Positions 11,156-48,015 of a stretch of DNA of 64,000 nt are shown here, one piece after another. How positions within the stretch are numbered: position 1 is the stretch's first letter; each line of letters begins with the position of its first letter. This stretch comes from an uncultured Verrucomicrobiae bacterium. GTDB taxonomy: Bacteria; Verrucomicrobiota; Verrucomicrobiia; Chthoniobacterales; UBA10450. The position numbers and the translations under genes are program-made. The stretch covers positions 104,275-168,274 of the forward strand of contig CAVSMG010000019.1 in NCBI GenBank assembly GCA_963728955.1, in the 5' to 3' direction. The notes under the pieces were generated by a model that worked only from the letters and a program-made list of their open reading frames with translations, did no database searches and was not told the DNA's origin.

Positions 11156-14100
11156 CTACCCCAAATTCGGCGCGAGCCGTTTTTCGACTGCCGCAACTGG
11201 TTCGCCGTGCCGCAGCGCGTAATCCCTGACTTGATCGCGCCCGATTTGCCCGACTCCGAAATATTTTGCCCCCGGATGCGAAAAATAAAGTCCGCTTACA
11301 CTGGCACCAGGATGCATGGCAAACGATTCCGTCAGTTTGATCCCGGCGTTTTCCTCCGCATCGAGCAGATCGAATAGGGTTCGTTTCTCGGCGTGATCGG
11401 GACAAGCGGGATAACCGGCAGCGGGCCGAATGCCGAGATATTTCTCACGAATGAGATCAGCATTCGATAATTGTTCGTCGCGCCCAAACCCCCAAGCGAT
11501 GCGAGCTTGTTGGTGCAGGTATTCAGCGAACGCTTCAGCTAATCGATCTGCCAAAGCTTTGGCCATAATCGCGCTGTAGTCGTCGAGCTGACCCTTGAAT
11601 TCCTCAGCGAGCTCATCCGCGCCATGAATCGAGACCGCAAATCCCCCGAGATAATCGCGAAGTAGCGCATGCGTCTCGCTTGCATTTGCAGAGCCTGCAA
11701 GCCGGAGGCTCGCACTACTCTGAGGCGCGACGTAATCGGCCAGACAGTGATTGGGTTGCCCCGATGGCTTTTGCATTTGCTGACGCAAAAAATAAAACGT
11801 TGCGATTTTTTCAGTGCCGGTGTCATCAGCGTAAACATCAACATCGTCGCCGACGGCATTTGCCCGCCAAAACGCATAGACGCCGCGCGGGAACAGGAGA
11901 TTCTGCGCTACGATGCGTTCAAGGAGTTCCTGCGCGTCATCGAAAAGTTCACGCGCTTGTTTGCCGATCTTAGGATCGTCGAAGATCGCCGGATAGCGTC
12001 CGCGCAATTCCCACGTATGAAAGAACGGTGACCAATCGACGTATTCGACCAGATCACGAACAGTGATCGCGACTTTCTGGGGAGCGCACGCCGCCGGCGT
12101 GTCCATCCCAGGCGCTGGCCGGGATGTTTCCTTCCCAGCATACCAAACCCAGGGATAATCTTCACCGGGTTGGGCAACGCCTGCGTCCCACGGATTCCGC
12201 GCAATGTATTTGAATTTTTCCTGCAGATCGCTTTCGGAGCGAATCAATCGATCAAAGGATTCACGCTCCCACACTGGTCCGCTTTTTTCTTTGAGCTCAT
12301 TAATCTTGTGAGCGGTGAAGGACTTAAGACTGTGCAGAATGTCGGTGAGCGAATAGAATTCCGTAGCGTCCGGAGTCTGACTCCTCACCCGTGGTTCAAT
12401 CAGGATGTGAACGTGATCTGGCATCACACACGCTGCGTAGAGCTCGTATCGCCGCTCATTCCAATACAGGATGCAATCCAGGACGATTTTGCGAGCGGCG
12501 TCGCTTAATTTTTGTCGAGCGTTTGTGCTCCAAGTAATCGCGTACTTTGCCCACGGGCGTTCAAAGCGCGGGAGCCGCCTTTTGCTGTAATGAGTATCAC
12601 TGAAAGTTTCCGGCGGGCCGCCGGAAACAGCACGCGAGCCGCGTGCGCTCCCCGGATCGCTGCCATAAACACGAAGTCCCAGAAATTCCGGGTTCGGCGG
12701 GACATAATTGTTCCAATCGATCGGCGTATGATTTGCGCGTGCTTCCTCGAGCGTCAGTAGTTTCTTTCTTTCGGTTTTTGCTGCGTGCTCCCGGCGCAAC
12801 CGCTCGTAGTCTTCGCGCGTTTTTTTGTCGAACTCCGATTTGAGTTCCTCGTTAAGCAGCGAATTCACCACCCCGACGGCGCGTGACGCATCGAGCACGT
12901 GCACGGTGCTGGCGCGATAATGCGGAGCGATCTTGACTGCCGTATGCGTCCGGCTGGTTGTCGCTCCGCCAATCAGGAGCGGCACGCGGAATCCCTCGCG
13001 CTCCATCTCCTGCGCGACGTGCACCATCTCGTCGAGCGACGGCGTAATCAGCCCGCTTAGACCGATTACGTCGGCGTTTTTCTCGCGCGCTATGTCCAAA
13101 ATCTTCGCTACCGGAACCATCACGCCAAGATCGATGACGTCGTAATTGTTACATTGCAGAACCACGCCCACGATATTTTTACCGATATCGTGCACGTCGC
13201 CTTTAACCGTGGCCATCACGATGCGACCCTGCGGTTTCGCATCAGCAGATTTTTCGGCTTCCATGAAGGGCATCAGGTATGCCACCGCTTTTTTCATTAC
13301 CCGCGCACTCTTTACGACCTGCGGGAGAAACATTCTGCCCGACCCGAACAAGTCGCCTACCACACTCATCCCGGCCATGAGCGGACCCTCGATCACTTCG
13401 AGCGGTCGCTTGTATTCGCGGCGCGCTTCCTCTGTATCGTTGTCGATGTAATCGGTGACGCCTTTGATCAACGCGTGCTTCAGGCGCTCTTGCACAGGCT
13501 GCTTTCGCCACGTTTCATCGGCGACAGGTGTTTTTCCCTTCGCCTTTACGCGTTCCGCGAACTCGACGAGCCGTTCGGTTGCATCATCGCGGCGGTTTAA
13601 CAGCACATCTTCGACACGTTCGCGCAGCTCGGGTTCGATTTCTTCATAAACTGCCAGTTGTCCGGCGTTCACGATCCCCATGTCGAGCCCGGCGCGGATA
13701 GCGTGAAAGAGAAAAGCGGCGTGCATTGCTTCGCGCACGGTGTTGTTGCCGCGAAACGAAAACGAAATGTTGCTCACCCCGCCGCTGACTCGCGCACCTG
13801 GAAGGTTTTGCTTGATCCAGCGCGTCGCTTCAATGAAATCGACCGCGTAATTGCGGTGCTCCTCCAGGCCGGTAGCGATGGTCAGAATGTTTGGATCAAA
13901 AATGATGTCGCTCGAGGGAAGCTCAGCCCTCCGGGTCAACAGATCGTACGCGCGCGCACAAATCTCGATTTTGCGCTGGAAATTGTCGGCCTGCCCTTTC
14001 TCATCGAACGCCATCACGATGGCGGCCGCGCCGTATCGTCGAATCAATTGCGCCTGGCGTAGAAATTCCTCTTCACCGTTTTTCAAACTGATGGAGTTCA

Positions 14101-14479
14101 CGACGGCTTTCCCCTGCAAACATTTGAGTCCAGCCTCGATTACGCTCCACTTTGAGCTGTCGATCACGATAGGGATGCGCACGATTTCTGGTTCGCTACC
14201 TATCAAGTTCAGGAAGCGAGTCATGGCTGCTTCCGAATCGATCATCCCCTCATCCATGTTCACGTCGAGCAGGTTCGCGCCGCCCTGCACCTGCTGACGC
14301 GCGACGGCCAAAGCGCCTTCGAAATCGTCCGCGAGGATCAGCTTCGAAAATTTTGGCGAGCCCGTGATGTTGGTGCGCTCCCCGATCACGGCGAAACCGA
14401 ATTCCGGCGTGATCTTTAGCGGTTCCAGCCCTGACAATTGCAGGGCGTTTTCGTCAAACGCCATTTCTTCGATCGGCAT
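11156..14479 (-). CDS. metH: Cobalamin-dependent methionine synthase: pterin-binding, B12-binding and AdoMet-reactivation modules. The Hcy module is in the upstream ORF. The gene carries an in-frame RayT-like insertion.
   Basis: Uninterrupted 1107-aa ORF. Motifs seen: LSGLEPL...[11 protein letters not shown] (pterin barrel), GDVHDIGKN plus GLSGLIT (B12 DxHxxG/SxL), and [13 protein letters not shown] plus [12 protein letters not shown] (activation domain). About 190 extra residues sit between EFLGLRVY and [12 protein letters not shown]. Confidence 0.9.
12079..12653 (-). mobile_element. RayT-like HUH/Y1 transposase module embedded in-frame in metH, bounded by 13-bp inverted repeats
   Basis: GGGGAGCGCACGC at 12079-12091 and its exact reverse complement at 12641-12653. 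The encoded segment has RRLPRFE, HUH ([10 protein letters not shown]) and the catalytic Tyr motif ([13 protein letters not shown]). Confidence 0.7.
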
Positions 14480-15590
14480 CTGACAAAGACGCCCTACTGT
14501 TTAGTTCGCGCGGTTTGCAATCCTGCACGGCCTTTGCGATTGCGCCGATGTGTTCCGGGGTTGTTCCGCAACAGCCGCCCACCAGGTTCAGCCAGCCGTT
14601 GGCCGCCCATGCGACAACTTTCGGCGCAAAGGTTGCCGCTGTTTCAGGAAATCCCGTCGGCGAAAGGGGATCGGGCAATCCCGCATTCGGATAGGCGCCC
14701 ACGTAAAATGGCGCGACCCGCGAAACTTCTTCGATGAAGGGTTCCATTTCATCCGGACCCAGTGCGCAGTTCAAACCAAGGATGAGCGGTTGCGCGTGGG
14801 CGATGGAAATAATGAACGCTTCCACCGTTTGGCCGCTCAGGTTACGTCCGGATTTGTCGATCACAGTGCCCGAGATCATCAACGGCACGCTGCGTCCGGT
14901 TTTTCCCAATGCATCACTGATTGCGAACAGCGCGGCCTTTCCATTAAGCGTGTCGAAAATGGTTTCGACGATGAGAAGATCGACACCGCCTTCGAGCAGC
15001 GCTTTCGCTTGATCGAGGTAAGTTTGGCGAAGCTGATCGAACGAGACCGCACGAAAGGCAGAATCGTTTACGTCAGGTGAAATCGAACCCGCGACTGGAA
15101 GGGGACCCATTGATCCGCCAACAAATCGCTGTTGTCCGGTTTCATTCGCGGCGCGATCTGCCGCGGCGCGCGCGATACGCGCTGCTTCAAAATTGATTTC
15201 CTGAACGAGCGCTCGAAGACCGGCATCGTCCACCACGCGCTGAAAGAATTCCTGATCTTTGCGGTCACGAGTGGGTTCGCCTTGAAACAGGAAATCGTGC
15301 GAACCGATTGTTGTTCCGCTAAAGGTGTTGGTTTCGATAATGTCCGCGCCGGCGTCGAGGTACTTGGAATGAATCTCCTCAATGACCCGTGGTTGCGTCA
15401 CGTTCAGCAGCTCAAGACTGCCTTTGAGATCTTTCCCTTTCCAATCGCGAAACCGTTTCCCACGATAGTCCGCCTCGGACAATCCGTAGCCCTGAATCAT
15501 CGTGCCCATTGCGCCATCGAGCACGGCTATGCGTTCGCGCATCAGCGATTCCAGAGGATGAAGCCCATGAGTTGCCATGATGTCCGGCAA
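14454..15590 (-). CDS. Homocysteine S-methyltransferase module of methionine synthase (MetH N-terminal domain as a separate ORF)
   Basis: 378-aa ORF with [12 protein letters not shown] and IIETNTF, and the zinc-ligand region LNCALGP ... [11 protein letters not shown]. Its 3' end overlaps the metH ORF start by 26 nt in another frame. Confidence 0.85.
14475..14500. repeat. Degenerate half-REP at the junction of the two methionine synthase ORFs
   Basis: GGCATCTGACAAAGACGCCCTACT differs at 3 of 24 positions from the REP arm GGCGTCTGACACAGACGCCCTACA at 47991-48014. The metH ATG (14477-14479, minus) lies inside it. Confidence 0.6.
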
Positions 15591-15723: not shown

Positions 15724-15773
15724 TGTAGGGCGTCTGTGTCAGACGCCGAGGTGTTTCAGAGAAACGCCCTACA
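15724..15773. repeat. REP element, TGTAGGGCG family
   Basis: TGTAGGGCGTCTGTGTCAGACGCC-GAGGT-GTTTCAGAGAAACGCCCTACA. It has an inner palindrome GGCGTCTG/CAGACGCC and outer arms TGTAGGGCG/CGCCCTACA. Near-identical copies lie at 39392 and 47956. Confidence 0.8.
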
Positions 15774-39391: not shown

Positions 39392-39441
39392 TGTAGGGCG
39401 TCTGTGCCAGACGCCATGGCGTTTCACAGAAACGCCCTACA
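39392..39441. repeat. REP element, TGTAGGGCG family
   Basis: TGTAGGGCGTCTGTGCCAGACGCC-ATGGC-GTTTCACAGAAACGCCCTACA. It lies just upstream of the inferred secretin start codon. Confidence 0.8.
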
Positions 39442-44952: not shown

Positions 44953-45072
44953 AAAACTCTCTCGGCGTCCGCCGCGGCGGACGCCCTACAACATTCGTGT
45001 CTATTCCAGTTTACCCGCCGCGTGCGGGTGCCGATTACTGGTTAAATCTGCCGTGATTGGTCACATTCCGAA

Positions 45073-47955: not shown

Positions 47956-48015
47956 GGGGCGTTATCTGTGAAACGCCATTTCGAACAGGTCGGCGTCTGA
48001 CACAGACGCCCTACA
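47956..48015. repeat. REP element, TGTAGGGCG family, inverse orientation
   Basis: The reverse complement reads TGTAGGGCGTCTGTGTCAGACGCC-GACCTGTTCGAAATGGC-GTTTCACAGATAACGCCCC. Confidence 0.75.

Follow-up and report, generated by a model that had tools for sequence, protein, structure and literature searches.

The gene examined here is metH, encoding cobalamin-dependent methionine synthase (MetH), on the minus strand of a 64,000-nucleotide (nt) stretch of contig CAVSMG010000019.1, termed the window, from an uncultured Verrucomicrobiae bacterium placed in Candidatus Udaeobacter. The gene is present as two open reading frames (ORFs) whose frames lie one base apart and which overlap by 26 nt at 14454-14479, and the junction between them is formed by a doublet of repetitive extragenic palindromic (REP) units. 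The ORF calls confirm the two-frame layout (14454-15590 and 11156-14479) given in an earlier reading of the window made from its letters alone, referred to below as the sequence-only reading.

Architecture of the divided metH gene

The protein encoded by the upstream frame, ORF A, corresponds over its whole length to PF02574, the homocysteine (Hcy) S-methyltransferase family (E 4e-83, residues 23-355), and its earliest ATG lies at 15578, downstream of the TTG from which the frame opens. The Pfam scan of the downstream frame, ORF B, identifies Pterin_bind (PF00809), the B12-binding_2 cap (PF02607), B12-binding (PF02310), a Y1_Tnp segment and Met_synt_B12 (PF02965). The complete set of MetH modules is present across the two adjacent ORFs, with PF02574 on ORF A and the remainder on ORF B. 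Homology of ORF A to human MTR stops at ...CKPR, and the conserved LSGLEPL is reached 15 residues into ORF B; the break is therefore located exactly in the linker between the Hcy and pterin modules, a domain boundary that the sequence-only reading had correctly named. Any frame change yielding a fused protein is confined to 14457-14500, between the TGA of ORF A and the upstream TAA bounding the ORF B frame. The coordinates of these features are collected in Table 1.

A separate feature of ORF A is a segment of about 20 extra residues (residues ~100-122, window 15225-15290) relative to human MTR and to MetH of the order's other families, and matches to ORF A from these families are interrupted at residues 100 and 121.

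The junction is a REP doublet

The 24-mer GGCATCTGACAAAGACGCCCTACT at 14475-14498 is identical at 21 of 24 positions to a REP arm with exact copies at 15724-15747 (minus strand) and 47992-48015 and a one-mismatch copy at 39392-39415, and the arm gave zero matches across 100 shuffles of the sequence. A second, inverted unit follows after a 12-nt spacer, and the conserved REP head TGTAGGGCG lies in a short imperfect palindrome, with the two arms matching at 21/24 and 20/24 positions. The sequence-only reading had described the first arm with the same identity, and its derivation of the junction from a REP stands; the element extends over a full doublet (14439-14498) and not a single arm, the arm itself ends at 14498 and not 14500, and the exact comparison copy, given as 47991-48014, is displaced by one position. 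Orthologous junctions carry the same kind of sequence. A perfect 24/24 a-type arm is found at the site in G006, and G001, G052, G088 and others carry a different subtype, GGCGTCCGCCGCGGCGGACGCC, which is also present in the window near 44960-44990.

The source genome (G000) is an assembly of 3.82 Mb in 21 contigs that is ~91% complete. A census of it with the patterns TGTAGGGCGTCTGTGTCAGACGCC (a-type) and TGTAGGGCGTTTCTGTGAAACGCC (b-type), counting units at ≤4 mismatches, identifies 76 units of this family (REP1) and 22 head-out doublets whose spacers measure 0-24 nt. The metH doublet, with four mismatches in its b-type arm and three in its a-type arm, is among the most diverged of the 22. Each of the 108 genus genomes contains between 1 and 52 copies of the a-type arm (≤1 mismatch), and a reversed control pattern gave 0.

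The mRNA is predicted to form a single long hairpin by pairing of the two arms (-41.3 kcal/mol, z = -5.2); the conserved ATG of ORF B lies at the edge of its loop and the ORF A stop in the 3' arm. The doublet codes for the final ~16 residues of ORF A, and each arm keeps its usual reading frame, the first in ORF A and the second in ORF B. The metH copy is in this respect not extragenic, being translated in two frames. At an intergenic copy, 39416-39441 reads ATGGCGTTTCACAGAAACGCCCTACA and the whole of 39392-39441 would read CRASVPDAMAFHRNALQ. A near-consensus doublet of the same family (15724-15773) falls in what is likely the promoter or 5' leader of metH-N.

Table 1. Coordinates of the metH features in the window and of REP1 units inside other genes of the source genome
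Feature	Position	Strand	Remarks
ORF A (metH-N), free homocysteine-binding module	14454-15590	minus	378 codons from TTG 15590
TGA ending ORF A, within right REP arm	14454-14456	minus	C>G relative to b-type consensus TTTCAC
ORF B (metH-C), longest ATG form	11156-14479	minus	1107 amino acids (aa)
Conserved ATG, probable ancestral ORF B start, at hairpin-loop edge and 8 nt upstream of ORF A stop	14462-14464	minus	In 12/12 REP1 split species
Lineage-specific in-frame ATG (REP ACG>ATG), may also serve as start	14477-14479	minus	Only G000, G107, G113
TAA closing ORF B frame upstream	14501-14503	minus	Window sequence
Full REP doublet (REPIN-like), head-out, forming the entire interdomain linker/gene junction	14439-14498		Genome census, C19:118713-118772
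a-type arm, mRNA 5' side, AGTAGGGCGTCTTTGTCAGATGCC	14475-14498	minus	21/24 against consensus; ORF A reading SRASLSDA
Spacer GATCGAAGAAAT, 12 nt	14463-14474	minus	Homologous to G035 14-nt and split-species 15-nt spacers
Inverted b-type arm, mRNA 3' side, GGCGTTTGACGAAAACGCCCTGCA	14439-14462	minus	20/24 against consensus; ORF B reading (M)AFDENALQ
Y1_Tnp (RAYT-like) core, in frame between B12 and activation domains	12269-12547	minus	PF01797, ORF B residues 645-737
Near-consensus doublet of the same REP family, ~135 nt upstream of ORF A	15724-15773		REP search
REP1 in alanyl-tRNA synthetase	C7:106796-106846		In frame; PF01411 match spans insert
REP1 in IspG/GcpE	C4:30129-30152		In frame; PF04551 match in two stretches
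REP1 in DnaE-like PHP domain	C1:572545-572602		In frame; Pfam match across or flanking
REP1 in MFS/TLC transporter	C1:629758-629805		In frame; Pfam match across or flanking
REP1 in FAD-oxidase-like protein	C7:283716-283739		In frame; identified by eye only

Junction types in the genus

The Hcy module was searched for in 108 genus genomes and is present in 95. The junction, defined as the DNA between the GGCCG and LSGLEP motifs, was compared in 84 genus genomes plus two outgroups. It is split in 72 of the 84 and fused in 12, and the split forms comprise at least five junction types. The canonical fused linker (F135, three species) is 135 nt long and contains a heptamer repeat encoding IQSAIRNPQSAI. 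The largest class (S128, 37 species) has a split junction of 128 nt with an ATGA stop/start overlap (..SYA* / MILRLSGLEP) and without the REP doublet of the window. The class of the window, REP1 split, comprises 12 species with junctions of 160, 163 or 166 nt, all of them 1 modulo 3, and a single species, G035, carries the REP1 doublet in a fused gene with a 162-nt linker. A MITE-like (miniature inverted-repeat transposable element-like) element of ~90 nt occupies the linker in 13 species, a second palindrome family in eight (four split, four fused in frame) and a whole RAYT gene in six (three split, three fused in frame), and the other four species are one of a kind. Outside the genus, most of the more distant bacteria sampled have a plain 120-nt linker, which rules out that the 24-nt REP similarity is conserved MetH coding sequence, an outcome that would have refuted the sequence-only reading.

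Within the REP1 split class, G107, G113 and G115 have exactly the 160-nt junction length of the window despite substitutions, and eight more species share the frame offset. Several members of the class are highly fragmented assemblies. The flanking codons of the 12 species differ at a synonymous divergence (dS) of 0.2-1.0.

Several further observations concern the other linkers. The RAYT genes lie in the linkers of G018/L003, G054/L036, G099/L049, G017/L013, G053/L043 and G039/L088 and have palindromic ends of the GSARASRA type; three form part of a fused in-frame ORF of 1549-1619 aa, and the other three are open only towards the Hcy frame. L090 (G076) and L112 have fused genes whose linkers, of 162 and 159 nt, contain a further, different REP-like doublet (GGGACGACCTCTGTGTCGTCCC ... 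GGGCGCGACAGAGCGCGTCCC) in frame. The basal fused linkers L014, L086 and L091 (G013, G031, G100) contain the heptanucleotide AATCCGC in about four tandem copies, a frameshift-prone repeat. S128 is exactly 7 nt shorter than F135, a difference that deletion of a single heptamer could explain, although divergence between the sequences is too great to demonstrate this. The heptamer linker was also considered as a common repeat or insertion target and rejected, as (AATCCGC)n occurs just once elsewhere in G000. The 133-nt split junction of G007 may be a REP1 junction minus its left arm: its alignment, with the ATG at -8 and a gap of 30 nt, is compatible with this, and its similarity to the right arm is weak.

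Stop and start codons at the junction

The position of the conserved ATG relative to the ORF A stop is closely maintained among the 12 REP1 split junctions: it is 8 nt upstream of the stop in nine, 4 nt downstream in two (G006 and G110) and 22 nt downstream in G061. The triplet at 14479-14477 is more variable. The sequence-only reading had recognized it as the REP triplet ACG mutated to ATG, and this correspondence holds; its view that the REP supplies the start codon also stands, with the restart placed at a different, conserved ATG, since the triplet is ATG only in G000 and two other species (Table 1) and is ACG, ACA or GTT in the remaining members of the class. The stop of ORF A is likewise borne by the REP. 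In the 166-nt class the TGA belongs to the a-type consensus GGCGTCTGAC, and in the window it arises by a C>G change within GGCGTTTCAC.

A close spacing of stop and start is the rule in the other split classes too. The ATGA overlap is found in 36 of 37 S128 junctions and in three of four split junctions of the second palindrome family, and the MITE-like class has a conserved in-frame GTG. Such a tight and conserved stop/start geometry is the pattern expected of selection for translational coupling, and coupling of the two ORFs is accordingly plausible from the sequence comparison.

Frame offset, selection and history of the junction

The arms of the doublets in this genome share a reading frame at spacers of 2 + 3n nt. 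In G035 the metH doublet is bounded identically on both sides, contains a homologous spacer (GATCCAAGCAAAACA, 14 nt) and forms the in-frame linker of the fused gene. The spacer is 15 nt in the 163- and 166-nt classes (GATCCAAAACAAAAT in split species such as G001) and 12 nt in the window's class (GATCGAAGAAAT). The in-frame doublet of G035 together with these length differences indicates that the frame break stems from a net change of 1 nt in the A-rich spacer and not from the insertion itself.

Both halves of the divided gene are under purifying selection. In split species compared at dS 0.2-1.3, the ratio of nonsynonymous to synonymous divergence (dN/dS) ranges from 0.08 to 0.14 in the Hcy part and from 0.03 to 0.08 in the pterin part, and the constraint on both is no weaker than in fused species. 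As the REP1 junction is shared by 12 species at the divergence given above and both halves remain constrained, the break is not recent.

In a protein tree built from the Hcy and pterin segments on either side of the junction (80 rows, with two other families of the order as root), fused forms, G035 included, lie at the base. One derived clade of 36 rows contains 35 rows of S128. Another clade of 27 rows has the REP1 split form as its paraphyletic base, with the MITE class, RAYT inserts and second-palindrome junctions nested within it; members of these nested classes retain the ..NAL(Q/E)LSGLEP tail derived from the second REP arm. The fused G078 is also nested in the 27-row clade and looks like a re-fusion.

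REP1 units and RAYT loci elsewhere in the source genome

The metH doublet is not the only REP1 sequence inside a gene of G000, as in-frame units lie in at least five others (Table 1). These mostly read as CRASVSDA, in the same frame as the first arm in metH. With REP1 in frame inside several genes, the fused arrangement of G035 is unremarkable for the genus. The alanyl-tRNA synthetase frame (G000 C7:~105900-107270) ends after ~455 codons, about half the usual length, and could be a split gene or a frameshift error.

The RAYT-like insert in ORF B, 1.8 kb downstream of the junction, is bounded by another palindrome, GGGAGCGCACGCGCCTCGCGTGCT, present in 15-18 copies, and not by REP1. None of the five RAYT-like loci in the ~91% complete G000 assembly has REP1 within 1.2-1.5 kb, and no REP1-flanked cognate RAYT was found there. 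The different palindrome family at the RAYT insert means that the two events in metH are parallel uses of its linkers and not the work of one system. The sequence-only reading had proposed metH as a hotspot of REP/RAYT activity; this is borne out to the extent that REP1 doublets, the second palindrome family, the ~90-nt MITE-like element and whole RAYT genes all occur at the Hcy-pterin linker across the genus, and does not extend to an activity shared with the downstream RAYT.

Discussion

The anatomy of the locus, the REP identity of the junction, its conservation across species, the purifying selection on both halves and the conserved stop/start geometry are directly observed. Taken together they make it probable that metH in the window is the product of a natural and long-standing fission in Candidatus Udaeobacter, in which a linker made of a REP doublet carries the stop and the restart. 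The fission would produce a free homocysteine-binding subunit from ORF A and a pterin/B12/activation subunit from ORF B, with the 60-nt doublet replacing the former interdomain linker within coding sequence. A ribosome on ORF A would read the first arm as ...SRASLSDA..., cross the spacer and stop at the TGA inside the second arm, and ORF B would start one frame over at the ATG at 14464-14462, or at the lineage-specific ATG at 14479, reading the second arm as MAFDENALQ before entering LSGLEPL. Ribosomes ending ORF A may unwind the hairpin and re-initiate beside the restart codon, which would couple the two ORFs translationally and keep the subunits at roughly equal amounts, after which the subunits would associate without a covalent link, like those of other split MetH enzymes. 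The fission may have been viable because the REP arms happened to offer a nearby stop and ATG. Coupling by re-initiation, assembly of the subunits and the order of insertion and frame change are our inferences from the sequences.

The doublet supplies the stop and restart codons, as far as the comparison indicates, and is not necessarily the cause of the break. The fused metH of G035 reads through this doublet in frame, so that the doublet need not itself have broken the gene. Nor does fission at this linker depend on the doublet, since 37 congeners are split by a plain ATGA overlap without it. The junction thus appears to be a domesticated or tolerated REP doublet in a real, conserved two-gene methionine synthase.

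Several results weigh against this account or limit it. Lineages placed between the REP1-junction genomes in the flank tree keep the older heptamer-type linker, and in the approximately unbiased (AU) test the grouping of G035 with the 27-row clade is borderline disfavoured (p = 0.044), while that of the clade with both G035 and G007 is rejected (p = 8e-5). A single vertical origin of the REP1 junction was considered and is disfavoured by these values. The incongruence of the REP1 junction with its flanks indicates that the linker either moved by recombination or was hit twice by one element, and either the fused or the split REP form may have come first. Read by eye, the window sequence has no clear Shine-Dalgarno motif before either ATG. 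A profile search for metE (PF01717) found no match in G000, which at ~91% completeness may still encode one.

The sequence-only reading had attributed the split to a REP insertion or remnant that broke the frame of metH in this genome, with the ACG>ATG change at 14479 creating the restart codon. The arm is genuine, this ATG lies inside it in the frame of ORF B, and REP1 split junctions are basal in the clade of the window; however, the junction is common to 12 species, the fused G035 carries the doublet in frame with the length difference residing in the spacer, the ATG at 14479 is absent from nine of the 12 species whereas that at 14464 is universal, and the 37 species of S128 are split without this REP doublet. 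A break caused by the insertion is therefore improbable, and this part of the earlier account is not upheld. Programmed +1 frameshifting at GUU-UGA-C (14459-14453), or transcriptional slippage, could in principle restore a single-chain MetH. Frame B is +1 relative to frame A, a strong hairpin surrounds the site, and UGA-C is a weak terminator context that makes the site resemble the prfB shift site CUU-UGA-C. The resemblance to prfB ends there, as GUU-UGA-C has no upstream Shine-Dalgarno-like stimulator, the valine tRNA on GUU re-pairs poorly in +1, and both the site and the frame vary among orthologues: the shift site is AAA-UGA-A in G006 and G110, and the frame relation is +2/-1 with ATGA in 37 species. 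The A runs of only 3-4 nt are too short for slippage, and the conserved ATG beside the stop favours re-initiation, which together leave recoding a very unlikely explanation.

An error of assembly or base calling would be another origin of the offset, the true gene then being continuous with an in-frame doublet as in G035, and one base in the A-rich spacer would indeed fuse the frames. Against this, the junction has the identical length of 160 nt in four separate assemblies despite substitutions; eight more species share the frame offset, several of them in highly fragmented assemblies, and the stop and start positions are conserved, with the other split classes equally consistent (ATGA in 36 of 37). 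An error is on these grounds hardly credible. Least probable of all is that metH is a decaying pseudogene of a methionine auxotroph riddled with mobile elements. The gene does hold a REP doublet, a RAYT insert and possibly further inserts, and likely amino acid auxotrophies have been described for Ca. Udaeobacter copiosus (bioRxiv 10.1101/053942), but methionine synthase is among the B12-dependent enzymes listed for that organism (bioRxiv 10.1101/053942). In addition, split species show a dN/dS of 0.03-0.13 for either half, every domain is intact and scores strongly against Pfam, and the stop/start geometry is conserved. Neither a second metH nor any alternative methionine synthase was found in G000, a genome ~91% complete. 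A conserved fission with the stop and restart carried by the REP doublet accounts for these observations more readily than any of the four alternatives.

A broader possibility is that in Candidatus Udaeobacter palindromic elements, from REPIN-like doublets, the second palindrome family and the MITE-like element to whole RAYT genes, use the flexible linkers of essential genes as safe landing sites and repeatedly toggle metH between single-chain and two-subunit forms at its Hcy-pterin linker, with the stop and restart embedded in the hairpin acting as a coupling or stoichiometry device and possibly as an mRNA-stability device. We regard this extension as speculative and rather doubtful. If true, it would document that selfish repeats can drive a core enzyme reversibly between fused and split states inside a single genus.

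Relation to known systems

Cobalamin-dependent MetH divided into two or three parts has been described, Sphingomonas koreensis included (PMC7857596), and in the roseobacters Phaeobacter/Ruegeria the Hcy, pterin and B12 modules are separately encoded as MtgCDE (PMC12478193). The locus in the window resembles these systems in having a PF02574 polypeptide separate from the pterin/B12 modules, with the genes adjacent and both kept. In a clear difference from them, the fission is young enough for fused, split and apparently re-fused forms to occur inside one genus, a repeat element makes up the junction, and overlapping ORFs stand in place of the spaced or dispersed ones of the known systems.

The doublet itself shares with REPINs its inverted 24-nt palindromic units, the 0-24 nt spacer and the potential to fold into one long hairpin, as well as the tens of dispersed copies and a consensus kept across the whole genus. 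REPINs are reportedly mobilised by RAYT transposases; unlike this, no RAYT flanked by REP1 was found in G000, and the metH copy, like at least five others in the genome, is located in coding sequence and is predicted to be translated. In the latter property the family is closer to the Rickettsia palindromic elements (RPEs), which are said to be inserted in frame in protein-coding genes. RPEs typically lie in loops or linkers and are 100-150 nt long. As with RPEs, short palindromes are tolerated here in frame in housekeeping genes, such as metH of G035 and the alanyl-tRNA synthetase, IspG, DnaE-like and MFS/TLC genes of G000. The sequences are unrelated, the REP1 elements are shorter (24-60 nt compared with 100-150 nt), and the element in the window metH carries the stop and restart of a gene fission rather than just being read in frame.

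Translationally coupled overlapping gene pairs have overlaps of the ATGA or TGATG type, as in trpB-trpA. The metH pair is similar in that the upstream stop and downstream start are within 8 nt of each other and conserved across species, which suggests coupling, and it differs from pairs of the trpB-trpA type in that the overlap lies in a REP hairpin with no evident Shine-Dalgarno motif.

The split MetH architecture is already known. What is new in degree is the REP doublet as a junction supplying both codons, the occurrence of fused, split and re-fused metH within one genus, and a REP family that appears to be routinely translated. A limited literature search, weak evidence of absence, found no paper on a REP-built gene junction or on in-frame REPs in Verrucomicrobia.

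Gene fission is usually inferred from distant comparisons, and here its steps and the recruitment of codons are readable within one genus. Fused metH with and without an in-frame REP, several split forms of independent configuration and apparently re-fused forms stand side by side, all under purifying selection. The locus further indicates that REPs/REPINs, classed as extragenic, can reside in the coding sequence of a bacterium that lives free in soil, a situation comparable to that of RPEs in Rickettsia. For the enzymology of MetH, these natural variants would show the Hcy barrel working in trans and linkers that tolerate from 9 to ~300 extra residues, as read from the predicted proteins. The arrangement also carries a risk for annotation, in that the Hcy module will be called a generic homocysteine S-methyltransferase and the remainder a truncated MetH. 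This may mislead metabolic reconstructions of Ca. Udaeobacter, a genus whose members have been described as ubiquitous and abundant soil bacteria (bioRxiv 10.1101/053942).

A metH split at the Hcy-pterin boundary is also seen in Ferruginibacter, other Chitinophagales and two metagenome-assembled genomes of Bacteroidota (loci L130, L133, L134, L138, L140 and L144, with further loci L145, L147, L152, L164, L170 and L171). The stretch from GGCCG to LSGLEP is 174 to 962 nt in these genomes, compared with 120 nt for the plain linker, and some of the gaps could hold other inserts.

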